This document shows positions 5,156-26,303 of a DNA stretch of 64,000 bases, piece after piece. The notes beneath the pieces are model-generated. The model saw nothing but the letters and a program-made list of their open reading frames with translations, was not told the DNA's origin and did not search any database. The first letter of the stretch is position 1, and the number at the start of each line of letters is the position of its first letter. The position numbers and the translations under genes were made by a program. Source of the DNA: a bacterium (GTDB lineage: Bacteria > Patescibacteriota > 4484-211 > GCA-002791395); contig JALWZS010000038.1 in the NCBI GenBank assembly GCA_027002475.1, positions 46,032 through 110,031 of the forward strand. Direction: 5' to 3'.

Positions 5156-5239
5156 GATTATTCTTAGCTACGATGTATATATATTCGTTGGGTAGATAAT
5201 GCTATAATTCGAGTACATTTTGAAGGGGGGTGAGCAGAT

Positions 5240-6531: not shown

Positions 6532-6540
6532 TGGTATAAT
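6532..6540 (+). promoter_or_regulatory. Extended -10 promoter element (TGgTATAAT) upstream of rpsJ
   Basis: TGnTATAAT at 6532-6540, ~110 nt upstream of the rpsJ ATG and downstream of three consecutive hairpins following tuf. No good -35. Confidence 0.35.
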
Positions 6541-6649
6541 CGGGAGACCTCTTTTGAGGGGAGTATGTTTGAGAGTTGTAGGGTTGAAGAGTTGTAGGGA
6601 AAATACTCTGCAACACGCAACACTTAAACTCTTCAACGATTAACTAAAC

Positions 6650-6955
6650 ATGGCAGGCAGAATAAGAGTACGATTACAATCTTATGACTACAAGGTGCTA
6701 GATCAAGCATCTGAGGAGATATTGGACGCAGTGTTGCAGTCTGGCGCTGAAGTTATTGGTCCTGTTCCCCTGCCTACCGTTGTTGAGAAGTTCACTGTTA
6801 TTAGAGGTCCTCACATTGATAAAAGATCTCAAGAAACCTTTGAACAGCGTACTCATAAGCGTTTAATTGATATTCTAAATCCTAATCCAAGAACACTAGA
6901 TTCCCTTTCTAACCTAGATTTGCCTGCAGGGGTAAGCATCGAGATTAAGATGTAA
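6650..6955 (+). CDS. rpsJ: 30S ribosomal protein S10
   Basis: 101 aa, [19 protein letters not shown]... is canonical S10. Confidence 0.95.
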
Positions 6956-7001
6956 CGCTTGTCTTTGCAATCCTTTTATTTATCCTTATAATTACTTTAC
7001 T

Positions 7002-8819
7002 GTGACGAGTAAGGAAATCTTAGACAAATACATCAATTTCTATAAAGAGCGTGGGCACGTGCAAATCCCTAACGTTTCTTTGGTTCCTGGTGGTGACTCT
7101 ACATTGCTTTTTGTGAACTCAGGGATGTTTCCATTAGTTCCTTACTTAGCAGGAGAGCCACATCCTGCTGGAAAACGATTAGTTAACATTCAGCGCTCTA
7201 TTAGGTTTGAAGATATTGATGAGGTTGGAGATAACCGTCATACAACGTGCTTTCATATGATTGGGAACTGGAGTCTTGGAGACTACTTTAAAAAAGAGCA
7301 ACTGCCTTGGATTTGGCAGTTTTTTGTTGAAGAGTTGGGCATGGATATTAATAAGATGTATGGGACTGTGTTTAGTGGTAATGAATATGCACCAAAGGAT
7401 GAAGTTTCGATTAGTCTCTTAAAAGAGATTTTCCCGAAGTATGGCATAGATGATCCAAAAGAAGGTGAGCGAATCTTTGCGTATGAAGGGAATTGGTGGC
7501 AGCGCGGTGATGCTATTGGTGAGCTTGGCGGTCCTGATAGCGAGGTGTTTGTCTATATTGGAGACGAGGGCACAGGATTTGGTAAAGACCCTGAGGAGTA
7601 CGAAGATGAATTTCTGGAAATAGGCAACTCGGTTTTTATGCAGTTTGTTAAAACCGAAAATGGTTGGGAGGAGTTACCTCAAAAAAACGTTGACTTTGGT
7701 GGAGGATTTGAGCGGATTGCGCTAGTTGTTCAGGGTAAAAAGGATATCTTTGAAACAGATAACTTTTGGCCAATTATTGAAAAGATTGAGGAACTTTCTG
7801 GGAAGAGTTACTACGAGAGTGAAGAAATAAAAAGAGTTATGCGGATTTTGGCCGACCATATACGCTCGTCTACGTTTATCGCTATGGATGGCGTTGTTCC
7901 AAGTAATAAAGATCAAGGATATGCTCTTCGTCGATTCCTTCGTCGTATGGTAAGGTTTGCAAGAAAAATTGGAATTAACGAAAACGTTGCTGGCTCGCTT
8001 GTCCCGACTGTTGCCAGTATGTTTGAGTGGTTGTATCCAGATTTGCCAAGCAAACAAGCAAACATAATTAGCTTGTTTGTTGAGGAAGAGGAAAAATTTG
8101 GTAAAACTCTTGCTAAGGCGGCTAAAAAGGTTTCAAAAAGACTAGACAATTTTGGTGGAGACTCGGCAAATCTAGCTGAGATTGCCTTTGACCTTTTTCA
8201 ATCCATGGGGTATCCACCAGAGATGTTGTTAGAAGATGCAACCGATAGAGGGATTGAGGTTAATGACGAGGAATTCTACAAAGTATATAAGGATAAGTTT
8301 AAAAAACACCAGGAAGGTTCAAGGCAAGGTGCTGAGGCTAAATTTAAAGGGGGATTGGCGGATCATAGTGAACAGGTTGTCAAATACCATACAACGACAC
8401 ATTTACTCCATTGGGCACTAAGACAGGTACTAGGAGAAAATGTTGTTCAACACGGTAGCAATATCACAGGAGAGCGCTTAAGGTTTGATTTTAACCACGA
8501 TGCCAAACTAACACAGGAGGAGGTCGAAAAAGTAGAGAATTTAGTAAATGAAAAGATTAAGGAAGGGCTTAATGTCGATTTTGTAATAATGCCAAAAGAA
8601 GAGGCACTCAAAACTGGTGCAATTCATGCTTTTGGGGAAAAGTACGGAGACGACGTTAAGGTCTATTTTATCGGGGATTCGTTAGAAAATGCAGTAAGTA
8701 AGGAGTTTTGTGGTGGTCCACACGTTAAAAACACCTCTAAGCTAGATCCGATAAAAATATATAAGCAAGAGTCTGTAGGGAAAGGTGTTAGAAGGATATA
8801 TGCCAAGAAGGTGGAATAG
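7002..8819 (+). CDS. alaS: Alanine--tRNA ligase, short form ending after the editing domain
   Basis: GTG start. Class II AlaRS catalytic core (FYKERGH, SLVPGGDSTLLFVNSGM) plus editing-domain Zn motifs HTTTHLLHWAL and CGGPHV. Only 605 aa, so no C-Ala domain. Confidence 0.85.
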   Translation: MTSKEILDKYINFYKERGHVQIPNVSLVPGGDSTLLFVNSGMFPLVPYLAGEPHPAGKRLVNIQRSIRFEDIDEVGDNRHTTCFHMIGNWSLGDYFKKEQLPWIWQFFVEELGMDINKMYGTVFSGNEYAPKDEVSISLLKEIFPKYGIDDPKEGERIFAYEGNWWQRGDAIGELGGPDSEVFVYIGDEGTGFGKDPEEYEDEFLEIGNSVFMQFVKTENGWEELPQKNVDFGGGFERIALVVQGKKDIFETDNFWPIIEKIEELSGKSYYESEEIKRVMRILADHIRSSTFIAMDGVVPSNKDQGYALRRFLRRMVRFARKIGINENVAGSLVPTVASMFEWLYPDLPSKQANIISLFVEEEEKFGKTLAKAAKKVSKRLDNFGGDSANLAEIAFDLFQSMGYPPEMLLEDATDRGIEVNDEEFYKVYKDKFKKHQEGSRQGAEAKFKGGLADHSEQVVKYHTTTHLLHWALRQVLGENVVQHGSNITGERLRFDFNHDAKLTQEEVEKVENLVNEKIKEGLNVDFVIMPKEEALKTGAIHAFGEKYGDDVKVYFIGDSLENAVSKEFCGGPHVKNTSKLDPIKIYKQESVGKGVRRIYAKKVE

Positions 8820-8842
8820 CTTCCTCATTAAGGAAAGTACAA

Positions 8843-8935
8843 GTTTCAAACGACAATACACAAATGTAAAACACGCAAAACATCATTATGTCCTCTAGTT
8901 TGTTTGGTCCTTTTAGCTTTTGCGGTTTGGTATTT
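8843..8935. repeat. CA-rich/TG-rich imperfect long palindrome (family copy 1)
   Basis: gtttcaaacgacaatacacaaatgtaaaacacgcaaaaca ... gtttgtttggtccttttagcttttgcggtttggtatttg. A CA-rich arm is followed by a partly complementary TG-rich arm. Confidence 0.4.
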
Positions 8936-8988
8936 GCCAGACACATTGCCATTTTTGTTAAAAAAAGCTACATTTAGGGTGTTAAATA

Positions 8989-11627: not shown

Positions 11628-11631
11628 CATC

Positions 11632-12015
11632 GTGAGAATTCTTGCAATTGACCTTGGGTATAAACACACCGGACTGGCTATGTTTGATGAAACTCTTGGA
11701 ATTTCGCCTCTTGCAAATGTTGAACACAAAGACTTATACGAACTGCTTTCTAAGCTAATGCGTTTTATTGAGGATTATGGTTTTGACAAGATTCTTGTAG
11801 GCGATATGGGGGGCGGGGAAAACGAAGAGTACCTTAATAAGTTTGTAGATATTTTGCAAAGCCGCTTAAATTTAAAGTGTGAGATCGTGAGTGAGCGGTA
11901 TTCATCGAAACAAGCAACTAAGGAAATACAAAATACCGGCAATGTGGAGGTAAAAAAAGATCATGCATCTGCAGCGGTACAAATCTTAAGAGACTACGTA
12001 GTCAGGGATTTGTAG
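11632..12015 (+). CDS. ruvX: Putative pre-16S rRNA nuclease / Holliday-junction resolvase-like YqgF (RuvX)
   Basis: 127 aa, GTG start. MRILAIDLGYKHTGLAMFDE matches the RuvX/YqgF N-terminus (RNase H-fold). The position downstream of alaS matches conserved alaS-ruvX synteny. Confidence 0.8.
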   Translation: MRILAIDLGYKHTGLAMFDETLGISPLANVEHKDLYELLSKLMRFIEDYGFDKILVGDMGGGENEEYLNKFVDILQSRLNLKCEIVSERYSSKQATKEIQNTGNVEVKKDHASAAVQILRDYVVRDL

Positions 12016-12058
12016 GGTTGCGTTTTGGTATATGCATGAGATATATTAATAAAAGACT

Positions 12059-15000
12059 ATGAAACTAAAACTGCCTAGTTTGGTTGTTCTTATTTTAATT
12101 GGCTCATTTGCCTTGGGTAGTGTATTTATTGCTCCGCCAACAAGCGCTGATATTTTTGGCGGTGGAAGTAATTCTGGTGGTAGTATTTTTGGGAATATCT
12201 CTGATGGTGTTAGTGGTATCTTTGATGGGATAAGAGAGGCGTTCCCTGGCGGTGCAGTTATTCCTGCTGACTTACCAACGCCAACCCCAACGCCTGTTGG
12301 ATATACTTCGCCTCCTCCACAACCCCCAGCGTCGCTTGGTGATGTTCGTGAATTGAAACTAAGATTAGAATGGGATACGCTAAGCCTTGGTGGTGAGGCT
12401 GTGTACCCACAAGAAAAAGATCCACTGGTTTGTATACATCTCGGTGACGATCTTGCTGTGAGTGAGGGGTTCTCTGAGTGCGCTGGCCGTGGGTATCCTG
12501 GTGCGGTTGCTTGCGATAGGTGCGGGTTCGCCGATATAAATGATTATGCATTTGACGCCCAAAACCGTTTGGTGCGCAAAGACGTCTTAGGTATGAAGGT
12601 GGAAGCTGGTGCGGATAGTCCGCCGCCACCATCATCGCCACCTGACGGGGGACCTACGGTGGTAGCACCTTATGTGTGGGAGGTTTGTGTGCCTAGGCAA
12701 GAATGTAAGGTGGCTGACTTGACGCATGCGATTGTTGGGTGGTGTGGTCAAAATCCAGTTATTCAGAATACAGCAGGATTTAGTGCGAAAATACCAATTA
12801 ACTCTACTGGACCTAATTCATTCACGTTGCCGAATGCAGTGTCGAATAAGTATATTCGTAGGGATGGTTATGCGTTTAGGTGTGTGATTGCAGACTGTGA
12901 AAGCGGTACGTGTTCTCATGATAATTATGTTGAATTTCAGACTATGATTTACCCATCTAACGCAATCTCGATGTACTTAACTGTAGAAAATCCGTCTCAG
13001 ATCCATACAATAAATAATATTTTAATAAAATCAAATACACTAACCTTTGCTAAAGAAGGAGAAACTCCTCTACCTCACAATCTAGATTACTTAGTAGCTC
13101 AAAATGACAACAATCATAATAATCCACCTGTGGCAAATGATTTTTATAAGAATGACTATAAGCCAAGCGCCACTGGAGCACCTACTGAGGGATGGGGTTA
13201 TAAGCATGGTAATAACCTTACAGACTCGACTACAATAAATGTGAGTGGGGTCGATTTTAAAGTTAAAAAGGACACCTCTGATCCAAGTAGAGATGTTTAT
13301 TATTTTGAGTATGGCCCTTTTGACTTAGCCCCTGGACAAACTAAAAAACTACCTTACCAACCAGCTAGTGCCGAGTTTTCTATGATACCTGGGACGGCTG
13401 CAACAGTACCAGGGAGTGGACCGTCATTGGTACCACTTGCCAAACCATGTGAATGTCAGTCAGTTAAACTGCATGACGTATTAGGTACACCTCCAAATGG
13501 CTGTAATCAAGTAATAACTAATCCAACAATTAATCAGTGTCGTTTGTATTATGGAATAGGCGCAAAGCGTAATGAGGGTGGGACCATCGTTAACTATGCA
13601 GATCACTCAGGAGGATACTCTTGTGACTTGCAAGGAATAACAGTTGATGGTTGTCCACCGCCATGGTGCTTTGACGGAGCGGTCAGTCAAGTTGGTCCAA
13701 TGGACGAATGCGAAAAGATTATACAAAGGTATCCAGAGTTAGACCAGCACCCTGGTGGTCCAAATGGAAAAATAGATAACCCACAAGACTTAAATCTTGA
13801 TGGTGATTTCGATGATCCGGGTGAAGACGAATGGTGGTTCTGGAATATGTCGTCGCAGGGACCTGAGTCATTAAGTTCCTTGGGCTCGCTGGCAAAGGCG
13901 ATATTGCCCAGAGAGTTAGTGTCATTCTTTGGTGGTAAGGCCAAAGATGTCCCCGCTGAACTAGCATCTGTCAACGATGTGTCGGCGTTTGGATGTCCAC
14001 AACCGTGTCAAAACCAGCCGCCACCAGGAGTACAAGGTAAAGGTGGTATTATCCCAAGAGACTTTAACTTCATATGTGATCCGGATGACAAATACGATAG
14101 TGGAGATATGGTTGAAGAAAAGCGTTGTAGTGGAGTCGATTTTGATCCAGCTAAGAACAACAAGACAATTATCCCTCCTATAAATACGAACCACCCAGAT
14201 TTGGCGTATGATCAAATGCTTTTTAAAACATACCGTGACGTGACTGCATTAAAGGGATGTGGTTATAACGCTTCGTCGAATAATTCAGTAATTGGTCCTA
14301 TTCAAGTCGTTGCAGAATATGGCGGACGTGGCGATGCGCGCACTGGTAGATCTGTTCTCTTGGCGTCTATACCAATCGGTGGACGTATTTTAGACGACCA
14401 AGCCAGACCATATGGTTGGCCTGTAACCGGGGAGATTGAGCAAGACTGGGGTTACACTGGGCAAGCGGCAAATCAGGGTCCGTACCGTTCGACTCCATCA
14501 AGCGAGTACGGTGAGTACCGTTATTGTTCTCCTACAGATGCTATGCTCTCGCCTGACGAATTGCTTGCTACGAAGGTCTCTTGTCCTGATATTCCTGATT
14601 CGGACATAGATCAGGCAAACAATAATGCAAAGCCTAAAGCTGATTTAGTTGCTGCAATTAGTAATCCTGGCTCGATTATTAGGAACTGGGTTGCGTGTAC
14701 CCCTAATCCAAATGATGACTGTTGGCAGGAAACTATTGATAATGTAGATAAGTGTTATAACGCGGTGGTTAAAGGCGCTATGGATACAGGGAACGACCCT
14801 GCAATGGCGTTAGCTATTTGGTTGGAGGAGTCTGGCGCAAGTAACTATATGCACTTTCCTGACGTTGCGGACTTTGGATGCACAGCGGCAACACATAATA
14901 ATTTCAATGTACAGCTAGAGTGTTTCAACGGCTTGCAGGATAGTTACTATGACTGGATTCACAATCCAGCTAATTCTGCCAGAGATTGTGTAAAAAATGC

Positions 15001-15211
15001 TCCTACTGGAGAATTAAGCATAGATAAATTCCTGCTCTTGTTCCAAGGTGGTTATCGTGCTTGCGATGAGAATAATCAAGCGGGGAATCAGCACTTTAGG
15101 GATAGAATAAAGGATGCTTATAAAATTACCCAGAAAGACGGAAGGTCGCTTGAAATACCTTGTACTCTAAAATCAACTAAATGGGATGATCCGACATGTC
15201 CACAGCCATGA
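12059..15211 (+). CDS. Large secreted Cys-rich, Pro-rich protein of unknown function
   Basis: 1050 aa. Signal peptide MKLKLPSLVVLILIGSFALGSVFIAPPTSA, then a Gly/Ser-rich segment, PTPTPTP and PPPPSSPP tracts, and many Cys. The C-terminal region (LAIWLEESGASNY...) is weakly lysozyme/SLT-like. Confidence 0.7.
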   Translation: MKLKLPSLVVLILIGSFALGSVFIAPPTSADIFGGGSNSGGSIFGNISDGVSGIFDGIREAFPGGAVIPADLPTPTPTPVGYTSPPPQPPASLGDVRELKLRLEWDTLSLGGEAVYPQEKDPLVCIHLGDDLAVSEGFSECAGRGYPGAVACDRCGFADINDYAFDAQNRLVRKDVLGMKVEAGADSPPPPSSPPDGGPTVVAPYVWEVCVPRQECKVADLTHAIVGWCGQNPVIQNTAGFSAKIPINSTGPNSFTLPNAVSNKYIRRDGYAFRCVIADCESGTCSHDNYVEFQTMIYPSNAISMYLTVENPSQIHTINNILIKSNTLTFAKEGETPLPHNLDYLVAQNDNNHNNPPVANDFYKNDYKPSATGAPTEGWGYKHGNNLTDSTTINVSGVDFKVKKDTSDPSRDVYYFEYGPFDLAPGQTKKLPYQPASAEFSMIPGTAATVPGSGPSLVPLAKPCECQSVKLHDVLGTPPNGCNQVITNPTINQCRLYYGIGAKRNEGGTIVNYADHSGGYSCDLQGITVDGCPPPWCFDGAVSQVGPMDECEKIIQRYPELDQHPGGPNGKIDNPQDLNLDGDFDDPGEDEWWFWNMSSQGPESLSSLGSLAKAILPRELVSFFGGKAKDVPAELASVNDVSAFGCPQPCQNQPPPGVQGKGGIIPRDFNFICDPDDKYDSGDMVEEKRCSGVDFDPAKNNKTIIPPINTNHPDLAYDQMLFKTYRDVTALKGCGYNASSNNSVIGPIQVVAEYGGRGDARTGRSVLLASIPIGGRILDDQARPYGWPVTGEIEQDWGYTGQAANQGPYRSTPSSEYGEYRYCSPTDAMLSPDELLATKVSCPDIPDSDIDQANNNAKPKADLVAAISNPGSIIRNWVACTPNPNDDCWQETIDNVDKCYNAVVKGAMDTGNDPAMALAIWLEESGASNYMHFPDVADFGCTAATHNNFNVQLECFNGLQDSYYDWIHNPANSARDCVKNAPTGELSIDKFLLLFQGGYRACDENNQAGNQHFRDRIKDAYKITQKDGRSLEIPCTLKSTKWDDPTCPQP

Positions 15212-17361
15212 TGAATAGAAAAAGAATACTAGCAATAATAGGAGGAATCGGAATAGCGTTATTTGTATTCTTCGGTACTCGATTTGTCGCGTATAAAACA
15301 GATAATAGTCTATTCCAAAACGAGGTGCGAGCGAGCGGGTCGGTTCAGTGGGGGATAAACATAGATCCAGCAAATCCAGACGGACATCCTTCTGCTGCAA
15401 GTCTTGGTAATGCAGGTTGGGTGAGGGTTGAGTTTAAGGACTGCAGTGATACAGATCCTGTCGGTGCGACTACTATCAGTCAATACACGAATGTTTTGTC
15501 TGAGTATCATAACGCAGGGATGAAGGTACTACTAATACTTGATTATCTAAGCTATCCAAATGCAGCAGATAATATAGATAAATTTGCGAAAAGGGTGGAG
15601 CATGTTGCAGAGAAACTTGGACATGATCTTAATTATATTGACGCGTATGAAATATGGAATGAAGAAGATCTTGCATCAATATACCCTCTTGATACTGCAA
15701 CTTATGCCAGTGTACTATCAGCACTATCTAGTGCAATAAGAGCTAAAGACCCAGGTAAACCCATTGTAATGGGAGGGTTGGCGTCGGGGCAGCCAAGTTA
15801 TGTAAGTTCTGTCAAGAACGCATTAGGAGGTAACCTTGATGCAGTTGATGCAATAGGAGTTCACCCTTACACAAAAGACGTTGACGGATATCCTGGGGGA
15901 GGGACAGGCGACATTATCGAGCTCATAGATCAATATAGGGCTGTGGCAGATAATAAGCCTATTTGGATTACTGAGATGGGGCTTGATACTACCGATGAGG
16001 CGCAGCAAGCGAATTATATTTTAAAATTAGATCAAGAGTTAAATAAACCAAGCAATGCGGGACATGTACCTGTTGTTACTTGGTTCGCCTGGAGTGATGG
16101 AATGGTATCTCCTTTTGGTATTGTAAAGGATTATTCGATAGCTAAGGCATCATATAATTCTTATTTTAATGTGCTTGGCGTATCGATACCAACGGTACGA
16201 GCACAATCGAGTGTCTCTGATATCTCTCCAGAAGGTGGAACTAGTTGTGGTGGGGCGCCAGAAAATCCGGGTCTAACTGCAAAAGAGGGATACATTCATC
16301 CAGGAATTGACATTAGACCGCAAAGGGGTGTTGCTAGCTCAAGCTATGTATACAGTACGCATGCGGGTTTTGTAACTTATGCTGGTCCTGCTCCTGTCAG
16401 TATTAAAGAACGCGGTTGGATGGTGCAAATTGAATCAGACTTAAATAGAGATAATGTGCCTGATGTAATCACTCGTTATACCCACATGATGCCAAATAGT
16501 TTAAGAATAAATGATGTTTGGTACAGGCGTTTTGCTTTTACTCCTGAGTATTTTGTTAGCTTGATTAATGGTATGGACGGAATAGAAAAGTTGCCGTTTG
16601 GGTATGGACCATATGTGGCTAGGAACCAGCTTTTGGGTATGGTTGGGGATAGTGGCAGTCCAGGGCATGTTCATATTCAGTACGAGATTTTGACGAATAG
16701 ATTTAGGTCGCTATATGGATTGGGGCTAGATACTGATGTGCCATATGCATGTTCAGACTCGCCATATGTTGAAGCTTGTTCGCCAGATGCTGGTAGACCA
16801 GGATTTTTCTTCCCACAGAATAGCAGAAAGCCTGCTAGGGTTCGTGGGCCTGTGTACTCAAATGCAGGGTTTGTAACTCCTCCACCAGCATTAACTCCAA
16901 TTGTGATTACTCCAACGCCAGCACCAGCGACTCCTACGCCTGATCCAAACCTACCAACACCGACTCCTGGTCCTACAGCAACTCCAGGTCCAACTCCTCC
17001 TGTAGGACCTGGTTGTGCTGACTTTGATTGCTTCACTATGTGTGCCAGCGTTGATGCTAGCAATACACTTTACGTTGAACTTTTCTGGAATTTCCACGAT
17101 CCCTCAACGAATCCTGGCGCATGTTATTGTGGTGACTTAAGCGATCATGAAATTAGGATCAATGGGGTTTCTTTTGGGCGACCGGCGGAGCTTAATGTGA
17201 TATCAGCTGCCCTGCCTCATAGGGTTTGGACTAACGGTGGGCACTCTGTGGGAGATCAGGTCTGCCGCTATAAAGGGAATTATGTTGCAGTGCCTGGATG
17301 GGACGATGCATGTAGACAACAGAACGATTGGGCTCAGTGTGTTAATGCGGTAGCTAGATAA
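15196..17361 (+). CDS. Membrane-anchored multidomain protein: clan GH-A glycoside hydrolase + M23 peptidase + PT linker + Cys-rich C-terminal module
   Basis: 721 aa. N-terminal TM helix. (beta/alpha)8 glycosidase signatures YEIWNEEDL (acid/base) and IWITEMGLD (nucleophile). M23 motifs HPGIDI (HxxxD) and GHVHIQYE (HxH). PT-rich linker TPTPAPATPTPDPNLPTPTPGPTATPGPTPP. C-terminal module with 10 Cys. Confidence 0.65.
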   Translation: MSTAMMNRKRILAIIGGIGIALFVFFGTRFVAYKTDNSLFQNEVRASGSVQWGINIDPANPDGHPSAASLGNAGWVRVEFKDCSDTDPVGATTISQYTNVLSEYHNAGMKVLLILDYLSYPNAADNIDKFAKRVEHVAEKLGHDLNYIDAYEIWNEEDLASIYPLDTATYASVLSALSSAIRAKDPGKPIVMGGLASGQPSYVSSVKNALGGNLDAVDAIGVHPYTKDVDGYPGGGTGDIIELIDQYRAVADNKPIWITEMGLDTTDEAQQANYILKLDQELNKPSNAGHVPVVTWFAWSDGMVSPFGIVKDYSIAKASYNSYFNVLGVSIPTVRAQSSVSDISPEGGTSCGGAPENPGLTAKEGYIHPGIDIRPQRGVASSSYVYSTHAGFVTYAGPAPVSIKERGWMVQIESDLNRDNVPDVITRYTHMMPNSLRINDVWYRRFAFTPEYFVSLINGMDGIEKLPFGYGPYVARNQLLGMVGDSGSPGHVHIQYEILTNRFRSLYGLGLDTDVPYACSDSPYVEACSPDAGRPGFFFPQNSRKPARVRGPVYSNAGFVTPPPALTPIVITPTPAPATPTPDPNLPTPTPGPTATPGPTPPVGPGCADFDCFTMCASVDASNTLYVELFWNFHDPSTNPGACYCGDLSDHEIRINGVSFGRPAELNVISAALPHRVWTNGGHSVGDQVCRYKGNYVAVPGWDDACRQQNDWAQCVNAVAR

Positions 17362-17366
17362 ATATT

Positions 17367-18356
17367 ATGTTGGATAAAATACGACAATTTACAATTTTAA
17401 CGAAAGCAATGAGTGCGTTCGTCAAGCTAGTTGCAATGGTTATAGTCGTTATCCTTTTGGTGTGGCAGTTGACTGGTCATAAGACAAATGTTGTTGAACA
17501 GAATGCCATAACTAGCTCAACATTTAGCATGGTTGATGCATTAAATACCGTACCTGTTGATGTTAACCTAGAAAAAGATGTCGACAAGTTTGAGGTTTAT
17601 AAAATGCCAATGTTTGCGTTGTCGTTACCTGATGCTAATTTATTTTCAGATGTAACCGCACAATTTGTTGCGCACGCGTTAGGGTTTACTCCAAAGGCTC
17701 AAGTTATGAACTCGGGAGATTTTGCGGGTTATAAGGAAGACGTCAAAACTTTAACTTTTGACAGAAAGTTAGGACAAGTCAACTACTCAACTATTTTAAG
17801 CATTGTTAATAAGGCTATTCCTAAGAGTGAGGCGTCACATAAGGATGTACAAAGTGCAGTTAAAAAGTTTTTTGAGAACTCGAAACTTCCTACTACGTTT
17901 TTTGACTTAGAGAATCTTGAGTATCAATCCATGGTGATGGATTCGGTTGGGGTTTTGTCCCCGGCGGTGTTGACTTCAGGGCGATTAACGAAGGTCGTGA
18001 TTCCTTATCAAGTTTCTGGGGTGCGCATACTACTACCAATTGAGAGTTATATGGTGGTAGATGGTAATGGCACTATTCGACTGATGACATTGTTTTTCCC
18101 GAACATTACTTTAACTGACAAAATGTACACGTTAATGAGTTGGTCTTCGGCAAAAAAGATTGCGCAGTCTGGTGGCGCCGCTGTTATTAGTTATGCTGCT
18201 AATTCTACCAAGGATTTTAGTATTGAGAAATCTTACGCAGCGTATTACATTAATCAAAGAGAATTTTACTCGATCGACAAAAGAAGGATTTTAAAACCAA
18301 TATATGTTTTTGAAGGAGATGGTGGTGTATTAGCAGTACCGGCAGAAAAATTATAA
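17367..18356 (+). CDS. Hypothetical membrane-anchored protein
   Basis: 329 aa, one N-terminal TM (FVKLVAMVIVVILLVWQL). No recognised domain. Starts 6 nt after the upstream stop. Confidence 0.5.
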   Translation: MLDKIRQFTILTKAMSAFVKLVAMVIVVILLVWQLTGHKTNVVEQNAITSSTFSMVDALNTVPVDVNLEKDVDKFEVYKMPMFALSLPDANLFSDVTAQFVAHALGFTPKAQVMNSGDFAGYKEDVKTLTFDRKLGQVNYSTILSIVNKAIPKSEASHKDVQSAVKKFFENSKLPTTFFDLENLEYQSMVMDSVGVLSPAVLTSGRLTKVVIPYQVSGVRILLPIESYMVVDGNGTIRLMTLFFPNITLTDKMYTLMSWSSAKKIAQSGGAAVISYAANSTKDFSIEKSYAAYYINQREFYSIDKRRILKPIYVFEGDGGVLAVPAEKL

Positions 18357-18358
18357 AG

Positions 18359-20659
18359 ATGATTATAAATAAACTTTATACGAAGTTAATTGCATTAACG
18401 GCAGTGGTTTCAGTTGTTGCCGTAGTGCTGTTTGTGCTTGTCGTTCAAGAGGAAAAGCCAACTGCAGTTACCAGTACCGAACCAGTAAGCGCGGCAACCT
18501 GTGATCATTGGTTGGAAAGCGAACCGTTTTATACTAATACCACTAGATCCCATCCTTTGCCATCATTTGCTGCAGGAAACTACTACTACGTTATGTTGAA
18601 GACTCCTGCATCCCACGCAAAATATGCAGAGATATTAAGCGATGGGAGTTTAGGTGAGTGGAAGGTTGCGACTAAGGGAGAGAGCGATAATTCAGGGAGG
18701 GGATATAATGCTGTTTCGTTTGATGGAACTGGTTATTTGTTGCGCTATGGACGTGTCTTGAAGCAGATCACTAGCGCAGATGGAGACATTGTTAACGAGG
18801 CAGATGTTGGGAATGGACCTAATAACGTTGGTGGACATGGTTACTATTGGTTGGGTTCCGTTCTTGCTGATTTTGGGGCAACTCGTTGGGTATATATCTT
18901 TGGTGGCTTTGACTTAGATCCTCATGTTTATGTATTTGACGGCACTTATCGTTCCAACAACTTGGCTAGCGCAAGTACTTGGTCTTGGACCCATATAGGC
19001 AAGAAGTTTCCAGGGGCTTACCCATACAAGGGGGCTTTTTATAAAGCTTCTGACGCATATGGGTTTATTTATGTGGCGGATCGCGACGGAACATTGTATA
19101 AGATACGTGTTGACTCTAATGGTAATTTAGGAACGTGGTCCTCTGCTGGTGTAAACTTTCCATCCGCCGATCGTGGGGATTATTTTGTTGCCAACAACAA
19201 GCTATGGGTGATTAGAGGGTCAAAGGTTTACTATGGAGATATTGATTCTTCCAGCGGGAACATATCCGCTTTTGATGATTCGCCACCTGATTTGCCAGGA
19301 CCTCAAATAGAGATGGATTGGGGGGACGGGCATAATGAAGGTAATTCGTGGGCAATAGTAAATGATGTGATTTATGTCACGGGTCCAGATAGGGTTTACT
19401 ATCTTCCATTAAGTGGCGGTTGTACGCGTGGTGGCGGTGGCGGTGGTTGGACGCCTGGTGTTGGTGGGGCTATAACTTGTAACGTTAAAGAATGGATTGC
19501 AAACGGCCCAAACGTTTTGACCGATCCAATAATATGTCCACGTCCTGAAGCGAGTAAGATAAATCCAGATTATTGTGCCGAAAACCCAACAGATGAAGTC
19601 TGCTTAAATCCTCCACCTCCATCAAGTCGGTGTGTGGACGGTGAAAAGTGTAAATTTAATTTCCAGCCCGATAAGATAGCTCAAATCCCGATGGATAAAG
19701 ATTATGGACAACATGATGGAACTGGGATAATGGCTGGCAAGCGTCAATATCGATATTATGACTACGACAATGATGTATTTATAGATGTCCCACCATATTG
19801 GTTCGGTAGCGGAGGAGGAAGTTTAATTGAAGCTAGTCTGACAAGTACTTCCCCAGCGCCTTATGATGGTTTGTCTGATCCAAGTATAACGGATGAAGCT
19901 CCGTGTGGTTGGCCAACTAATACATCTCATAGAAATGTTTATGCTGGATGTGGCTTCCCTTATACGGCTCACGATCGCGACACTTCAGGTGTAAATGGGA
20001 TTTGTCCAGAAGATATGAACCCACAAGCTCCAATTAGTTCTTGCGCTACAGAGGCATCTAACTATCATAACACTAATAATGGAACAGATATAACAGGTTA
20101 TGCAACTATTTATGCTACGCAAAAGGGGACCGCTTATAGGTGTGTGGATACATTGGATACTGACTACGGTGCCCATGGCTATGGAGTATTTACTGTAGTT
20201 CGAGGGGAGTATTTCACTACCTTAAGTGTACATTTTAGGCCAGTCCCTGCAGTTGATAGTGTTCCAGAATTAACCGATCCAAATGGGAGTCATTTATGTT
20301 GGGGGACAAAGCTTGTAAAAAAATGGGATGTTCAAAGGGGTGATGCCTTGGGAGAGGTTGGGCTTACTGGTTATACGAACGGTCCACACGTACATTATGT
20401 TATATTCCGAAACACCTTGCCCGATTCTAGTAATCCTTCTAAAAAGCTTCCTGATTGGAACCAACCAATCTGCGCCGCTTCGTTTATGGACTTGAACAAT
20501 GATTATTGTCAAGGGTTACCTCCTCAAACAATGAGTGCAAACCCATTTAGTAGCGTAGGCGCTTTTGTTAATAGTATCAATCCGTTTAGTTCTAATACAC
20601 AAGAGAGTACGCCTACACAAGAGAGTGCGCCAGATAGTAATTCTGATTATCGGGGCTAG
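18359..20659 (+). CDS. Membrane-anchored protein with Kelch-like beta-propeller repeats, poly-Gly/Cys-rich segment and C-terminal M23-like peptidase domain
   Basis: 766 aa. N-terminal TM. Repeated blade-like units (YVFDG, IYVADRDGTLYKI, LWVIRGSKVYYGDI). GGGGGGW tract. C-terminal GYTNGPHVHYVIF has the M23 HxH motif. Confidence 0.6.
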   Translation: MIINKLYTKLIALTAVVSVVAVVLFVLVVQEEKPTAVTSTEPVSAATCDHWLESEPFYTNTTRSHPLPSFAAGNYYYVMLKTPASHAKYAEILSDGSLGEWKVATKGESDNSGRGYNAVSFDGTGYLLRYGRVLKQITSADGDIVNEADVGNGPNNVGGHGYYWLGSVLADFGATRWVYIFGGFDLDPHVYVFDGTYRSNNLASASTWSWTHIGKKFPGAYPYKGAFYKASDAYGFIYVADRDGTLYKIRVDSNGNLGTWSSAGVNFPSADRGDYFVANNKLWVIRGSKVYYGDIDSSSGNISAFDDSPPDLPGPQIEMDWGDGHNEGNSWAIVNDVIYVTGPDRVYYLPLSGGCTRGGGGGGWTPGVGGAITCNVKEWIANGPNVLTDPIICPRPEASKINPDYCAENPTDEVCLNPPPPSSRCVDGEKCKFNFQPDKIAQIPMDKDYGQHDGTGIMAGKRQYRYYDYDNDVFIDVPPYWFGSGGGSLIEASLTSTSPAPYDGLSDPSITDEAPCGWPTNTSHRNVYAGCGFPYTAHDRDTSGVNGICPEDMNPQAPISSCATEASNYHNTNNGTDITGYATIYATQKGTAYRCVDTLDTDYGAHGYGVFTVVRGEYFTTLSVHFRPVPAVDSVPELTDPNGSHLCWGTKLVKKWDVQRGDALGEVGLTGYTNGPHVHYVIFRNTLPDSSNPSKKLPDWNQPICAASFMDLNNDYCQGLPPQTMSANPFSSVGAFVNSINPFSSNTQESTPTQESAPDSNSDYRG

Positions 20660-20662
20660 AAA

Positions 20663-21703
20663 ATGACTAAAAAAAAGAAGCAACTAATAATAGGTGGTGT
20701 TGTTGGGTTTATGTTAATTCTTGCATTGGCATATTCTTTGCCACGTTTAACTCACACAGTTACAAGTCCAGAGCCAACTGCAGCGCCACCAGCGGAAATA
20801 ACCCCAAAGGAGCTGCGTAGCGTAAAAGCTATTGAAGCGTCTGATGATTTAAGTGATATGGTCTTTAATGAAGCAAAGGGACTGTATTATATTTCAAGTT
20901 TCGACGAAGGCAAGATTTATGCTATTGGGCTTGAGAGTCAGACCGTAGATGGGGAGATTCCTGTTGTTGCACCAAATAGAATGTTACTAAACCCTGCAAT
21001 AAATAAAATGTATGTTACTTCAGCCGATACGGTAAAAGAGGTTGGTTTAAATAACTTTACGGTTGAGAGAAGTGTTAAAACAGGAGTTCATCCATTAGAG
21101 CTATTGGTTGCAGATAGTGGAAAACGCTTATTTGTTGTGAACGAATTCTCTGATAATGTGGCAGTTATTGATACAGATTCATTCTCGCTTATCGCAACCA
21201 TTCCCGTCGGTAAGAGGCCAGTTGATATTGCAAAGGATAGAAACGGTGAATTCGTTTACGTTGTCAATAAAGAGGATGCATCGGTCTCTAAGATATCGGT
21301 TAGTAATTTAAGTGTGGTATCAACAATTGAAAATGTTGGGCGACCGGTTGTAATTGAAGCATACCCCGGTAAAGACTTGATGCTAATCTTAGATCAATAC
21401 GGCGATAATGTAATTGTACTTGATACAAATACGGACAAAATCGTTAAAACAATTAAAACTGTAGATTATCCTGCTGCTATTGCATTCGATCTTGGTAACA
21501 ATCGCTTTTTTGTTTCAAGTTTTACAAAAAGCTCTATTGGCATAATTGACATTGAAAAAGAAGCAATGGTATCTGAACTGCAACTTGGAACTGCATTCCA
21601 ACCAATCTCTGGGCTTAACAATATGATTTACAACGCACAAAGCAAGTCACTTATTGTTACAAACACAAATACCGGCAAGGTCTTTTTCGTGCCGGTTGAC
21701 TAA
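20663..21703 (+). CDS. YVTN-family beta-propeller repeat protein, membrane-anchored
   Basis: 346 aa. N-terminal TM. Repeated ~40-aa units (KMYVTSADTVKEVGL, RLFVVNEFSDNVAVIDTDS, FVYVVNKEDASVSKIS, RFFVSSFTKSSIGIIDI) typical of YVTN/NHL-type propellers. Confidence 0.6.
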   Translation: MTKKKKQLIIGGVVGFMLILALAYSLPRLTHTVTSPEPTAAPPAEITPKELRSVKAIEASDDLSDMVFNEAKGLYYISSFDEGKIYAIGLESQTVDGEIPVVAPNRMLLNPAINKMYVTSADTVKEVGLNNFTVERSVKTGVHPLELLVADSGKRLFVVNEFSDNVAVIDTDSFSLIATIPVGKRPVDIAKDRNGEFVYVVNKEDASVSKISVSNLSVVSTIENVGRPVVIEAYPGKDLMLILDQYGDNVIVLDTNTDKIVKTIKTVDYPAAIAFDLGNNRFFVSSFTKSSIGIIDIEKEAMVSELQLGTAFQPISGLNNMIYNAQSKSLIVTNTNTGKVFFVPVD

Positions 21704-21754
21704 TGCCTGTTTAAGCCTTGACACTGCTATATTCTGTATCTATACTGAAGACGT

Positions 21755-22285
21755 ATGTTCTCTAAAATCTTACTGCGCCTTTTAAAAGAAGCTTTGTTCC
21801 CGGCAGTGCTAGTGCTGCTTACTAAGGTTGCAGCCATCATGATTTTTGTGCATGCATTTTCTTTAGCTTGGAGCTTGGAGGTTAAGACATTTATTCCTGA
21901 TTTTACATTCGAAAACCAAGACGTTTCTGTTTTTGTTAATTCGTACTCTAACCTGTTTGTATTTTTAGTTGTTGTGTTTGGGTTTGCTTGGGTATTAGCT
22001 AGAGCGTATTACTTTCACGATACACATATAAAGCCGTCTTTAATTCTAAGGCTTTTGTCATGGAATTTAACCGGACTTTTAACAAGTAGTCACGAAATTT
22101 ATCACAAAGGAGTTGTTTGGATTTCTTATCTATGGCTAATAACACTCCTTATTGGAGTGCATACATTGCTTGGCATTAATTATGTTTGGGTTTTTGTGTT
22201 TGCGTTGGCTTCAAGCGTACTTGCAACTTGGTACTTTATTGCTGACGTAGAAAGGGAACTAGTTCATCATGAAAGCACTATCTAA
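21755..22285 (+). CDS. Hypothetical polytopic membrane protein (~4 TM)
   Basis: 176 aa with four hydrophobic segments. The 3' end overlaps the next gene. Confidence 0.45.
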   Translation: MFSKILLRLLKEALFPAVLVLLTKVAAIMIFVHAFSLAWSLEVKTFIPDFTFENQDVSVFVNSYSNLFVFLVVVFGFAWVLARAYYFHDTHIKPSLILRLLSWNLTGLLTSSHEIYHKGVVWISYLWLITLLIGVHTLLGINYVWVFVFALASSVLATWYFIADVERELVHHESTI

Positions 22286-23036
22286 TCTCGCACTAACACT
22301 AATTTTATTTGGTCTATTTATGGTACCTGTGATTGCTATTCATAGGATGGTTTCTTTTGAGACTGTACCAAATAAAGGTGTTGTTGCTGGAGCTAGAACT
22401 ATCGACTCAAGTGATTTAAATATAATTCCAAATACGTCCGATTTTGATAAGTATGCAAGTTTTGCACCACATTCATTTGAGAATGGAGTTTATAAAGACA
22501 ACGTTACGGTAACATCTTTTCAACGACAGCAAGCAACGTACCGTGGACTTTATACACTTTACAATGTTTCAAAAGATCCAATAAAGCTAACAATTGTAGG
22601 CGATATTGCAGTACCTACCGATGCGACGTTTGATAGGATTGTTTTAGGGTTTGGCAATAACACTTTTGGTGAAAAGCTGTCTGCAGATCTTAAAAAGGGT
22701 ACGTCATTAATCCCAATGGATGTGCCTCTAGAAGGGGTTAATGTGGGGGATAAGATTTTAATTGGAGATGAATTAGTAAGTGTACTTCGAATTACCCCAA
22801 CTCATTTAGTAACAATGCCACTACAAAACACACATAAAGCAGGTGAAAAGATGTATCCTCAATCTGTAGTTCTAACACCAGGTGAAATTGTTTTCCCTGA
22901 ATCAGGGGTATATGTTCTAGAGGCAGGTGAAAAGGTTTTGGTCAACCTTGAAGTAAAAGGCTCTGCAAGGTTGTTGCAGCAAGATCAAAAAGTAACGGTT
23001 CCGCTCGAAATTAGAGCACAAAGATTAGACTCTTAA
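22269..23036 (+). CDS. Hypothetical secreted protein
   Basis: 255 aa, N-terminal signal/TM (LALTLILFGLFMVPVIAI). Last gene of the plus-strand operon. Confidence 0.45.
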   Translation: MKALSNLALTLILFGLFMVPVIAIHRMVSFETVPNKGVVAGARTIDSSDLNIIPNTSDFDKYASFAPHSFENGVYKDNVTVTSFQRQQATYRGLYTLYNVSKDPIKLTIVGDIAVPTDATFDRIVLGFGNNTFGEKLSADLKKGTSLIPMDVPLEGVNVGDKILIGDELVSVLRITPTHLVTMPLQNTHKAGEKMYPQSVVLTPGEIVFPESGVYVLEAGEKVLVNLEVKGSARLLQQDQKVTVPLEIRAQRLDS

Positions 23037-23055
23037 ACGGTTTTAGCCTCTTTGC

Positions 23056-24870
23056 TTACAAATCCGCAGCAGTCAATATATCAAAACGTGTTGTCCAAAT
23101 AGCGTCTGTTCCAGGAGATTTTAGGTTAAAGACAAACTTAAATCGATTGGCGTCGATATCAACAACAGAGCCATTGTTAAAATACACACGAACTGTTTTG
23201 GTTTGGGCTGTATTTGCCCCCGACTTTCCGTTTTCGTCAAGCACTTCAATGGCATTAAAGTTGGTGATTGGGGTTATTCCTGATTTGTTTAGTGCGTCAA
23301 CGATCTCACTTGATGTAAGCTCGCCAATTTGGTTGTTGTAACTTTCTGGGAGAAGTGCAGCATTGGCTAAATCTGTAACTTGCTCAATTGATAGCCATGG
23401 TTCATCTCCCCATGCCTTGTGATACCACGGAGAACCTGCGTAATCTTTACCCTCGTAGGGCTTCCCTTTGGCGTCAAAGTCGGCGATACTAACTGAGTAT
23501 GGTCGGTAACCGCCCCATACCTGTTGAGTGGTTAAAGTAAATCCGCCAGCCCCAATCGAGTACCATGCCTCAATTGGCTCGCCTTGATAAGTAATTACAA
23601 TTCCGCGTGTACTCTCTACAGCTTCTCTCCAGTACTCTCCGCACAAACCGTTGACCTTACTATCTCCAACATATACCTGACATTGTTGTGTCGTACAAAT
23701 AGGGTTTTGACCGTTATTGGTGTACTTTAGCGCATATGTGCGTGATATTATTGCTTGGACTTTAAGAATCTCAATGCCGCCTCGATCAGGCTTGCCCCAG
23801 CACGATGGCATTTCTCCTATTCCGAGTAGGTACTTGTCTTCAAATGGGAGTGTTCTTCCGTCTGTTAAGGTGATTGTTTTTGGTGCGTCCCATTTTTGTA
23901 GTTCTACGCCCTTAAAATACGCTTTTATTATCTCGTCTGCTGTTTGCCCAGCGACAGCACGCCCTAGTGCTCCATATTGGCTTAACCCGACCCGATGAGG
24001 ATATCCATATGTCCAAAATGAGAAATAGACCTTACCATCCTTAGGTGGGGATTTCTCTATCGCTGCCTCGTCTATTTCGATGTTTCCAACAGACGTTGAA
24101 GCTAGCGCTGCTGCTGCTTTTCTTGCTAAGATATCGCGTTGCTTTTGGGTTAGCTGATTTATCTTTTCGTCAATACCAATTAATGCTTGGTTTAAGTCTT
24201 GCATTCTAGCTTGTGCGGCAGCAAGATTGCTTTGTGTTTTAGAAATCTCTCCTTGAAGCGCATTTTGTTTAGCCACAAGTTCTTGCTTTTGTATAGTTAA
24301 CTCGTCTTTTATCTTTGCTAAGACTTCTCGAATATCCTGAATAGTTTGGAGTTGCTCGCCGAGGTTATCTGCATCCCGCTTTATCGAATACGTGACTGCT
24401 CTTTTGTAAATTAGGTTTTTTGTTAAATCTTTTAGCGTCTTTGCTGCAAAAATATGCGATAGCCATCCTGGAGCTTGCTGCATATACATCTGCCTTATGG
24501 CTTCGTGCATTAGTTCTAATCGTTCATTAATTAACTTTTCTGTTTCATCAATTTGCGCGTTTACCTTTTCAAGCTCGGCCTCCTTTTCCTTAATTGATTC
24601 TTGAGTAACTGCAACTTGCTGTTTGGTTGATTGATAGCTTTGTTGCATCGAAACTAAAGAATTTTCATACTGCGCCTTTAGTGCTTTTAGTTGGTCTAGC
24701 GCTTTTTGGTTAGCATCTTTTTGCTCTTTAGCTTTTTGTAGTTCTTCTTGAGTTTGGTCGAGTTGTTTGTCTAAATCGCTTAATGAATCCCCAAATGTGC
24801 GTGGTACAAATATAAAAGTTGCGATTAGTATAAGTACTCCGGTTAGTATAAGTGGAAACTTCCTGTTCAT
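23056..24870 (-). CDS. SpoIID/LytB-domain protein with long N-terminal coiled coil
   Basis: 604 aa. Signal/TM, then ~250 aa of heptad-rich coiled coil (LDKQLDQTQEELQKAKEQ...). The C-terminal domain carries the SpoIID/LytB signature YLLGIGEMPSCWG...LKVQAIISRTYA...CTTQQCQVYVG. Confidence 0.7.
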   Translation of the reverse strand: MNRKFPLILTGVLILIATFIFVPRTFGDSLSDLDKQLDQTQEELQKAKEQKDANQKALDQLKALKAQYENSLVSMQQSYQSTKQQVAVTQESIKEKEAELEKVNAQIDETEKLINERLELMHEAIRQMYMQQAPGWLSHIFAAKTLKDLTKNLIYKRAVTYSIKRDADNLGEQLQTIQDIREVLAKIKDELTIQKQELVAKQNALQGEISKTQSNLAAAQARMQDLNQALIGIDEKINQLTQKQRDILARKAAAALASTSVGNIEIDEAAIEKSPPKDGKVYFSFWTYGYPHRVGLSQYGALGRAVAGQTADEIIKAYFKGVELQKWDAPKTITLTDGRTLPFEDKYLLGIGEMPSCWGKPDRGGIEILKVQAIISRTYALKYTNNGQNPICTTQQCQVYVGDSKVNGLCGEYWREAVESTRGIVITYQGEPIEAWYSIGAGGFTLTTQQVWGGYRPYSVSIADFDAKGKPYEGKDYAGSPWYHKAWGDEPWLSIEQVTDLANAALLPESYNNQIGELTSSEIVDALNKSGITPITNFNAIEVLDENGKSGANTAQTKTVRVYFNNGSVVDIDANRFKFVFNLKSPGTDAIWTTRFDILTAADL

Positions 24871-24975
24871 TGTAATTTAATGATAGCAAATATCTTGCTT
24901 GGCGTATGTTGTGTAGAGCTTGAGGTCTTATTAATTTTGGCGCGAAAATAACTGTATAATCAAGAGAGCTAAACC

Positions 24976-25806
24976 ATGATAGATACTCACGCACATCTTT
25001 ATTTTGATTCCTTTAATGACGATAGAGAAGAGGTTATTAAAAGGATTGACGATGAATTAGATGCAGTTATCAACATAGGAATTGATACTACGTCAAATAA
25101 AAAGGTCATTGAGTTAGCGCAAAACAATGACAGGCTTTTTGCGGTAGTCGGTTTTAATCCAGAAGCAGTTGTTAAGCTTTTGGAGTCAGATAAAAACACT
25201 GATGACTTGCAAATAGAGTTGGGAGAACTGCTTTTACCGAGAAACAAAATCGTCGGGATTGGTGAGATTGGGCTAGATTATTACTGGAAAGAGTTTGCCG
25301 CAGAAAGCCAACGGGAACTACAAAAAAAAGGCTTTAGAGCGCAGGTAGAATTTGCAATAAAAAATGAGCTGCCGATTGTTATCCATTCTCGCGACGCCTT
25401 TTTCGATACGTTTAAAATATTAAGTGATTATAAAGACGAGTCTTATTTCAAGGGCGTTTGGCACTCATTTACCATAGATAAATCAGGTGGCGCTAATGGT
25501 GTTAGTCCAAAGGAGCAGTTGGAAAAGGTGCTAGGCTTAGGTCTTTACATCGGGGTTAACGGGATTGTCACATTTCCTTCGGCTAGGGGTTTACAAGAAC
25601 TAATAAAGGAGGCTCCATTAGGTCGAGTGCTTTTAGAAACAGACTCGCCATTTCTTGCTCCTCAGCCAAAGCGTGGGAAACGCAACGAGCCGGTATTTGT
25701 GCGCTTTGTGGCTAAAAAGATTGCGGAAATAAAAGGAGCATCAGTTAATGATGTTGCTATTCAAACAGATAGGAACGCAAAGGAGTTGTTTGGGTTGGAG
25801 AGTTGA
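24976..25806 (+). CDS. tatD: TatD-family metal-dependent DNase/hydrolase
   Basis: 276 aa. MIDTHAHLYFDSF and GEIGLDYY motifs are diagnostic. Confidence 0.85.
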   Translation: MIDTHAHLYFDSFNDDREEVIKRIDDELDAVINIGIDTTSNKKVIELAQNNDRLFAVVGFNPEAVVKLLESDKNTDDLQIELGELLLPRNKIVGIGEIGLDYYWKEFAAESQRELQKKGFRAQVEFAIKNELPIVIHSRDAFFDTFKILSDYKDESYFKGVWHSFTIDKSGGANGVSPKEQLEKVLGLGLYIGVNGIVTFPSARGLQELIKEAPLGRVLLETDSPFLAPQPKRGKRNEPVFVRFVAKKIAEIKGASVNDVAIQTDRNAKELFGLES

Positions 25807-25896
25807 AGGGTTGGAGGGTTGACGTATGAAGCGCCCAAAACGGTGAGAGATCGCCACGCATTTGCTCTGCAAATACTCGCGATGCAGTAGGCGTAA

Positions 25897-26259
25897 GTGG
25901 CGGGTTATAATGTTGTTATGTTTAAAGATAGACGGGTTCTTTTGTATACAATTGCCGCAATATTTATTAGCCAGTTGACCTTTTGGTTGGTGTTTTTATA
26001 TTACGATCAGTTGCCGCCTCAAATCCCGCTATGGAATTTGTCTAGCTGCGTTGAGTGTACCTTGGCTTCAACTGCGAACATATGGTATTTGCCTGGTCTT
26101 TCGATAGGTATTGTTGCATTGCATTTACTAATAACACTTTTTATTAACAAAACAAAGCCATTTATGGTTAATTTCGTTATGGGAACAACGCTTCCTATGA
26201 GCCTGTTTTTGCTTGGGGCAACGGTTAGACTGTTGGGGTTAGTGCTCGGTTGGTTTTAG
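25897..26259 (+). CDS. Hypothetical small membrane protein (occupies the position expected for rplO)
   Basis: 120 aa, GTG start (alternative ATG at 25918), three hydrophobic helices. Immediately upstream of secY. Confidence 0.4.
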   Translation: MAGYNVVMFKDRRVLLYTIAAIFISQLTFWLVFLYYDQLPPQIPLWNLSSCVECTLASTANIWYLPGLSIGIVALHLLITLFINKTKPFMVNFVMGTTLPMSLFLLGATVRLLGLVLGWF

Positions 26260-26303
26260 ATTAAAGCCTAAACTAAGGACTATTCTTTCAATGGTAGAAT
26301 AGT

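Follow-up and report, generated by a model that had tools for sequence, protein, structure and literature searches.

What has become of the ribosomal protein (r-protein) genes rplC to rplO in a genome in which rpsJ, the gene for S10, is followed by alaS, and secY is preceded by a small membrane-protein open reading frame (ORF)? The question is raised by a 64,000-nucleotide stretch from a bacterium of the Patescibacteriota (GenBank assembly GCA_027002475.1, contig JALWZS010000038.1, positions 46,032 to 110,031; hereafter the window), in which the gap from rpsJ to secY measures 19,348 bp. The str-S10-spc-alpha supercluster offers a textbook gene order, fixed over billions of years, for which operon concatenation and gene dosage near the replication origin are the current explanations. 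The initial annotation of the window described a gap without r-protein genes, and both this and its gene content are confirmed by the ORF listing, Pfam and tblastn. We show here that no r-protein gene has been lost and that some 1.65 kb separate the end of the L3-L15 block from the left edge of the window. What is seen is a permuted and interleaved supercluster, neither dispersed nor invaded by foreign DNA; it represents a known kind of gene-order change and not a new kind of system. Very likely, str-S10-spc-alpha was cut at rpoC/rpsL, rpsJ/rplC and rplO/secY, and the three intact blocks were permuted and interleaved with a second old gene neighbourhood.

The tblastn queries were eighteen r-proteins, L3 to S5, taken from the canonical WWE3 locus L006 and verified by Pfam; neither genes nor remnants of rplC..rplO were found in the 64-kb window (best E=0.15); rpoB and rpoC had no match within it. 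The product of rnj, near the left end of the window, is 100% identical to a recorded protein (P0121), whose ENA contig L167 matches window positions 1-11984 at 99.992% nucleotide identity (1 mismatch in 11,984 nt). Together with contig L169, it carries 19 tightly packed genes from rplC to rplO, intact by gene calls and Pfam, in the order rplC-rplD-rplW-rplB-rpsS-rplV-rpsC-rplP-rpmC-rpsQ-rplN-rplX-rplE-rpsN-rpsH-rplF-rplR-rpsE-rplO, which is the canonical internal order. The gene rpmD (L30) is absent from the block. The figure of about 20 missing genes first put forward is therefore right as to their absence from the window and becomes 19 because L30 is absent. After rplO come genes for an AAA ATPase of 387 amino acids (aa) and a UDG of 224 aa, then rnj; the last 297 nt of the UDG gene are window positions 1-297, and the block, counted in window coordinates, extends from about -9957 to about -1648. 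A Logan contig assembled independently (L168), which starts inside the block at rplN and continues into AAA, UDG and rnj, matches window positions 1-2353 at 100%. The proposed search for rplC..rplO elsewhere thus found them on a near-identical contig just left of the window: the block has indeed moved, but not far (from ~10.0 to ~1.65 kb left of position 1), and it is intact. Gene loss was considered and rejected, as rplC..rplO are intact upstream.

Upstream of rplC lie a tRNA-Cys(GCA) gene, then minus-strand bPH_2-like, DUF5657 and orf569 genes, a comF-like gene and smpB. The full order is tRNA-Cys, the rplC..rplO block, AAA-UDG-rnj, the rpsL..rpsJ block, alaS to tatD and the membrane ORF, and the secY..rpsI block. 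From rplC to rpsI this array spans ~44 kb, and all of it except spoIID lies on one strand. It is a tRNA gene that marks where the relocated rplC block has its 5' boundary.

In all four clade genomes, tRNA-Cys(GCA) stands directly upstream of rplC (L169 9159-9232, L170 9248-9321, L172 9266-9339, L173 9218-9292), on the opposite strand in L173, and in L172 and L173 tmRNA adjoins smpB ~4 kb further upstream. The L3 protein has 151-157 aa in the clade (L169 9589-10050; L170, L172, L173), compared with 190 aa in the WWE3 locus L006 and ~210 aa in model bacteria.

The genes of the window up to the end of the array are as follows, with the basis of each identification in brackets.

1..297, plus strand: 3' end of the UDG gene (PF03167 in the gene calls of L167 and L169, 224 aa)
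338..1984, plus strand: rnj, encoding RNase J (Pfam RNase_J beta-CASP and C-terminal domains)
2063-2506, plus strand: rpsL (Pfam)
2451 or ~2511 to 2981, plus strand: rpsG (Pfam)
3044-5155, plus strand: fusA (Pfam)
5240-6424, plus strand: tuf (Pfam)
6425..6649, plus strand: tuf-rpsJ spacer of 225 nt with several long hairpins
6650..6955, plus strand: rpsJ (S10), last gene of the relocated str+rpsJ block (Pfam Ribosomal_S10, E=1.5e-31)
6956..7001, plus strand: junction 1, the rpsJ/alaS spacer of 46 nt
7002-8819, plus strand: alaS, short form, 605 aa (Pfam)
8989-10113, plus strand: FtsA/PilM-like gene (Pfam)
10110-11627, plus strand: orf505
11632-12015, plus strand: ruvX (Pfam)
12059-21703, plus strand: five large ORFs of 1050, 721, 329, 766 and 346 aa (weak Pfam GH5, M23 and beta-propeller matches)
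within 12059..23036, after the five large ORFs, plus strand: two small ORFs of 176 and 255 aa
23056..24870, minus strand: SpoIID-like gene (Pfam SpoIID)
24976..25806, plus strand: tatD (Pfam TatD_DNase, E=4.9e-68)
25919..26259, plus strand: small membrane-protein ORF, 113 aa from ATG 25919 or 120 aa from GTG 25897
26260..26303, plus strand: junction 2, the membrane ORF/secY spacer of 44 nt
26304-27605, plus strand: secY (Pfam)
between secY and rpmJ, plus strand: adk, map, then NUDIX, infA (Pfam)
28989-29861, plus strand: the NUDIX gene, a lineage-specific insert of 290 aa with two NUDIX matches
30149-30262, plus strand: rpmJ (translation)
~30264-30653, plus strand: rpsM (Pfam)
to 33834, plus strand: rpsK, rpsD, rpoA, rplQ, rplM and rpsI (Pfam)

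This arrangement departs from the canonical one at each block boundary. Instead of rplC directly after rpsJ there is alaS, starting 46 nt past it; instead of rplO directly before secY there are tatD and the small membrane ORF; and rpsL is directly preceded not by rpoC but by a new neighbour, rnj. The two adjacencies that the initial annotation took to be broken, rpsJ-rplC and rplO-secY, are indeed broken, the cause being a translocation-type rearrangement, one of those it named. The organization in which S10 belongs with str is present (tuf, the 225-nt spacer, rpsJ, alaS, with S10 not next to L3), whereas its other element, an L3..L15 cluster leading into secY, is absent, AAA-UDG-rnj standing after rplO. 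The rpsL..rpsJ and secY..rplQ orders are canonical as described; the list had omitted a NUDIX gene between map and infA, the sole extra gene in the secY-adk-map-infA stretch, and rplM-rpsI at the end. GC content is uniform, GC skew is positive throughout, and both are continuous across both junctions. The membrane ORF upstream of secY matched no Pfam family, and has a counterpart of 112-113 aa in the same place in L163, L164 and L165 (38% identity in L163).

Comparison with relatives identifies the arrangement as a lineage trait, an outcome that the initial annotation had set against its own reading of a break. The nearest S10 proteins among GTDB species representatives (84%, 80% and 79% identity) come from metagenome-assembled genomes labelled WWE3 or, by automated pipelines, 'Saccharibacteria', and the secY, rnj and L4 homologues that carry names are from 'candidate division WWE3 bacterium'. 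The window therefore belongs to a genome of WWE3, a group of tiny, uncultured bacteria in the Patescibacteria/CPR. The permuted order is common to at least five independently assembled WWE3 relatives. In GCA_013335095.1, L170, L002 and L165 lie on one 536-kb contig (overlaps of ~4.8 kb for L170/L002 and ~400 bp for L002/L165) with the order tRNA-Cys, rplC..rplO, AAA, UDG, rnj, str, rpsJ, orf347, alaS, ..., spoIID (minus strand), tatD, 113-aa ORF, secY, ..., rpsI; its reads were also assembled independently by Logan. L003 and SRR33151386/GCA_054010915.1 (secY 97%, ~81% nucleotide identity) are permuted too. JGI Ga0606628_0000418 reads rplC..rplO-AAA-rnj-rpsL-rpsG, four inserted genes, then fusA-tuf-rpsJ with alaS 0.9 kb on; GCA_020429745.1 reads L18-S5-L15-AAA-NUDIX-UDG-rnj-str-rpsJ-alaS; and the right junction is seen on a 1.13-Mb contig of GCA_040960375.1. 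Junction by junction, rpsJ-alaS recurs in L167 and L177, with one additional ORF interposed in L002, and at a distance of 0.9 kb in L175. The tatD-membrane ORF-secY order recurs as called genes in L163, L164 and L165, whereas L161, L162 and L166 have tatD, an uncalled gap and then secY; junction 2 is kept in three relatives, and the Logan assemblies made independently for them show it too. The ORFs of 12059..23036 form a homologous series in L161, L163 and L165, and spoIID, the sole minus-strand gene of the array, keeps its position and strand in the same three. Within the clade, the near-identical sister species excluded, SecY is 70-77%, RNase J 58-63% and L4 51-58% identical to the protein of the window, and the arrangement therefore predates considerable divergence. 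Because it is shared by several independently assembled relatives, it is a vertically inherited trait of a WWE3 subclade, not a misassembly or a foreign island.

Several side observations concern the same genes in these relatives. AlaS consists of the catalytic core and the tRNA_SAD domain without the C-terminal domain, and has 585-610 aa in relatives. The NUDIX gene (28989-29861) is shared by the window and its sister species (L161, L162) but absent in L163 and L165, and is therefore a very recent small insertion into the cluster. The str operon is interrupted between rpsG and fusA in L175, where 12673-15642 holds an HTH gene, RadC and two ORFs, and gaps of ~3.6-5 kb separate rpsG from fusA in L006 and L007.

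The outgroups point to the state from which the permuted array arose. In the nearest of them, L004 (S10 72%), rpoB-rpoC-rpsL-rpsG-fusA-tuf-rpsJ is followed by a 3.6-kb insert (on the plus strand, a gene for an ABC-F-type ATPase and an unannotated ORF; on the minus strand, another such ORF) and then by rplC onwards. L006, labelled WWE3, is canonical through to secY, as are most other Patescibacteria, and the rpoC-rpsL adjacency is present in L004 and many other loci. The genes that now separate the r-protein blocks were traced with a metagenome scan seeded with rnj, which retrieved distant relatives only (at most 46% identity) and revealed the ancestral AAA-UDG-rnj...alaS neighbourhood. At least 30 distant Patescibacteria contigs carry AAA, rnj and the alaS-orf505 neighbours with no str genes between. 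Distant relatives (L081, L176) have pnp-AAA-UDG-rnj-ftsK-HTH_25, and in most of them alaS and orf505 follow within a few kb downstream; the order is rpsO-pnp-orf310-UDG-rnj-ftsK-HTH_25 in a relative labelled WWE3; and two distant contigs have rnj-spoIID (minus strand)-...-tatD. The sole locus annotated in full, L081, reads infB-x-pnp-AAA-UDG-rnj-ftsK-HTH_25(RodZ-like)-alaS-orf734-sortase-ruvX, where orf734 is the orf505 homologue; it is here that ruvX was seen near rnj. Because the filler genes neighbour rnj in distant Patescibacteria, they form an old neighbourhood of their own. We infer an ancestor with a canonical rpoBC-str-S10-spc-alpha cluster and, separately, rpsO-pnp-AAA-UDG-rnj-ftsK-RodZ-like...alaS-orf505-ruvX.

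Relative to this ancestor, five adjacencies were lost (rpoC/rpsL, rpsJ/rplC, rplO/secY, pnp/AAA and rnj/ftsK) and five gained (tRNA-Cys/rplC, rplO/AAA, rnj/rpsL, rpsJ/alaS and membrane ORF/secY). Since distant relatives carry the canonical cluster and a separate rnj neighbourhood, two old neighbourhoods have been interleaved. Their merger would have taken at least two or three transposition-like events, by possible routes that include duplication followed by loss, direct transposition or several nested inversions, the order of events being read from few outgroups. S10 would now be tied to the str genes as it is in Archaea; a new promoter downstream of tRNA-Cys would be needed for the rplC block, and alaS and secY might be served by promoter-like sites or by read-through from upstream. 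Gene dosage and co-orientation with replication were probably preserved, because all blocks are co-directional within ~44 kb.

Some of the evidence weighs against this history. The block is placed by a near-identical contig (L167) and a 100%-identical Logan contig, not by the window's own assembly. How many events there were, in what order and by what mechanism, is judged from a few outgroups and not read off a rooted tree. L001, the closest relative by S10 (84%), shares rnj-str-rpsJ and then has a DUF4143/AAA_14 ATPase (from L001 7692-8993), not alaS, followed by minus-strand glycosyl- and methyltransferase genes; either the region downstream of rpsJ therefore kept changing, or the short L001 contig is chimeric. 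Matches to promoter and terminator consensus sequences are not enriched over shuffles and are used as hints only.

Other explanations fit less well than permutation and interleaving of the three blocks. One is that the array, far from being neutrally scrambled, is a selected ~44-kb co-directional expression unit, joining r-proteins with RNA decay (RNase J), the AAA ATPase, DNA repair (UDG, RuvX), alaS and envelope genes, and that S10 (NusE) moved to the EF-G/EF-Tu unit adaptively, in convergence with Archaea and cyanobacteria. We regard this as improbable; if true, it would make the clade a natural experiment on supercluster rigidity. Quite unlikely is a history in which the split came from one or two inversions about the origin or terminus of replication. 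Among large rearrangements in bacteria, symmetric inversions are the commonest, and a breakpoint of this kind had been among the first suggestions for the window. However, orientation is unchanged in the three r-protein blocks as well as in both filler segments, and GC skew is positive throughout; as all three r-protein blocks share one orientation, a single inversion is excluded. Only at least three nested inversions could fit, and these would be one form of the transposition-like history proposed above.

Hardly more credible is a foreign 19-kb island between rpsJ and secY that displaced or deleted the L3-L15 genes, the large insertion of the initial annotation. In the middle of the segment lie genes for large and little-annotated proteins that may be secreted, which are typical island cargo. 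However, alaS, ruvX and tatD are single-copy housekeeping genes; alaS, orf505, spoIID and tatD neighbour rnj in distant Patescibacteria, as does ruvX in L081; and the segment is found in all clade members examined and is not patchy. The Pfam matches in 6956-26303, where several ORFs have no family, include no integrase or transposase, composition is uniform without long flanking repeats, and the L3-L15 genes are intact upstream. We dismiss with similar conviction the idea that the permuted order came first in WWE3, or in some wider group, with canonical order regained or transferred elsewhere. A handful of outgroups was inspected, without a rooted tree, which leaves it some room; yet canonical order holds in 50/74 determinable loci and in the labelled WWE3 locus L006, the nearest outgroup L004 has rpoBC-str-rpsJ-...-rplC, and independent re-creation of three exact canonical adjacencies is far less parsimonious. 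A contig chimera at rpsJ/alaS, at membrane ORF/secY or at both, to which a metagenome-derived window with an exact rpsJ product unmatched in the gene index might seem open, is almost certainly wrong, since both junctions recur across samples, assemblers and species, spacers are short (46 and 44 nt), composition is continuous, and independent assemblies of relatives exclude the misassembly first envisaged.

The spacers themselves offer hints about expression. In the 46-nt rpsJ-alaS spacer, a pattern scan found the promoter-like TTGCAA-16-TATAAT, and no terminator-like site after rpsJ or after the membrane ORF. A perfect 12/12 sigma-70 consensus (TTGACA, 16 nt, TATAAT, with an upstream TG) at 3007-3034, between rpsG and fusA, suggests an internal promoter in the str block. 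The tuf-rpsJ spacer folds at -91.8 kcal/mol (z = -8.7 versus shuffles) and contains the TGGTATAAT motif; it is shorter in relatives (70-162 nt in L001, L002, L003 and L175). A role in processing or stability, or as a leader, is conceivable. Rfam at gathering thresholds detected two tRNAs only in the window, and permissive Rfam scans of this spacer and of the region upstream of rplC brought up a spurious miRNA match and tRNA-Cys but no r-protein leader, and no credible family for the spacer.

Four intergenic sites (6567-6602, 25794-25821, 54556-54583 and 59858-59885) carry a G/T-rich repeat with a period of 8 nt (GGGTTGAA/GAGTTGTA-like), giving 6 matches where 0.46 would be expected. Partner tracts, A/C-rich and T/G-rich, are situated nearby at 54601-54738, 57119-57161 and 61147-61510, some of these positions being within the ATP synthase operon and in the recA-recX interval. 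Repeats and tracts may form a family of G.U-rich RNA hairpins. Among repeats and mobile-element genes that could mediate recombination at the junctions, only this short octamer repeat was found, with no long flanking repeats. It stands near both junctions and at two intergenic sites unrelated to them, and we do not take it for a recombination substrate. Beyond the array, from 34 to 64 kb, are unrelated genes of a housekeeping type as well as two tRNAs, the ATP synthase operon, recA, recX and rny; a gene for a three-domain multicopper oxidase (42921-44489, minus strand) adjoins tRNA-Pro in this reduced genome.

How unusual such a break is in the phylum was gauged from 80 rpsJ loci, of which 74 were classifiable, mostly Patescibacteria by record title with a minority mislabelled or from other phyla. 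In 50 of the 74, rplC lies less than 1 kb from rpsJ; in 19 it lies 1-7.4 kb downstream (at least 2 kb in eight to nine); and in five there is no rplC within 3-10 kb, two of these being in the window's clade and the others in CPR3 (L019), Woesebacteria (L041) and one further lineage (L036). With the adjacency loosened or broken in 24/74 loci, the rpsJ/rplC junction is a recurrent soft spot in Patescibacteria. S5-L15-secY is intact in 33/34 determinable loci, and the sole exception belongs to the window's clade. The initial annotation had ranked both adjacencies among the most conserved in bacteria, which in this phylum holds less well for rpsJ-rplC.

The clade has thus tolerated both cuts within the S10 and spc operons and a reshuffling of block order, yet its blocks are intact, co-directional and within ~44 kb. 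The constraints so indicated are hard for order within blocks, orientation and proximity, and soft for the exact junctions, and the clade is useful as a natural test of constraints on the supercluster. There are practical consequences as well. Pipelines for phylogenomics and binning that expect 16 syntenic r-proteins on one stretch will meet S10 ~8.3 kb downstream of L15, not upstream of L3, and annotators of such a window could wrongly infer gene loss.

No paper describing rearrangement of the r-protein cluster in Patescibacteria was found in the literature searched, and the nearest comparisons come from other groups. In cyanobacteria and plastids, rps10 stands at the end of the str operon. 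In Archaea, uS10 is universally unlinked from uL3-uL4-uL23 (PMC10833476), with which the rpsJ/rplC soft spot agrees. As in the window's clade, archaeal S10 follows tuf, apart from an L3 cluster that starts its own unit; unlike in Archaea, rplO is also parted from secY in the clade and the L3-L15 block lies upstream of str. The S10-str linkage of the window is an independent, recent event in a mostly canonical bacterial phylum. Other Patescibacteria with insertions between rpsJ and rplC share the loosened junction but keep rplO-secY. The cluster series published in 2019 (PMC6735719) is alike in gene content and in the co-direction of all blocks, whereas most of its breaks lie at operon boundaries and arose via small insertions. 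In the window's clade, one break follows the first gene of the S10 operon, one lies within the spc operon before secY, and one is at the rpoC/rpsL operon boundary; ~3.6 kb and 19.3 kb of other genes separate the blocks; and S10'/spc' precedes str in a permuted order. In the Brandis survey of Gammaproteobacteria and Bacilli, 77/115 events (67%) went back to gene insertions, operon pairs that became disconnected typically did so starting from small insertions between the operons, and secY lay outside spc in a single species (PMC8046335). That case shares with the window the loss of the rplO-secY adjacency; there, however, secY alone had moved, whereas the secY of the window keeps adk-map-infA-alpha and it is the upstream r-protein block that has parted from it.

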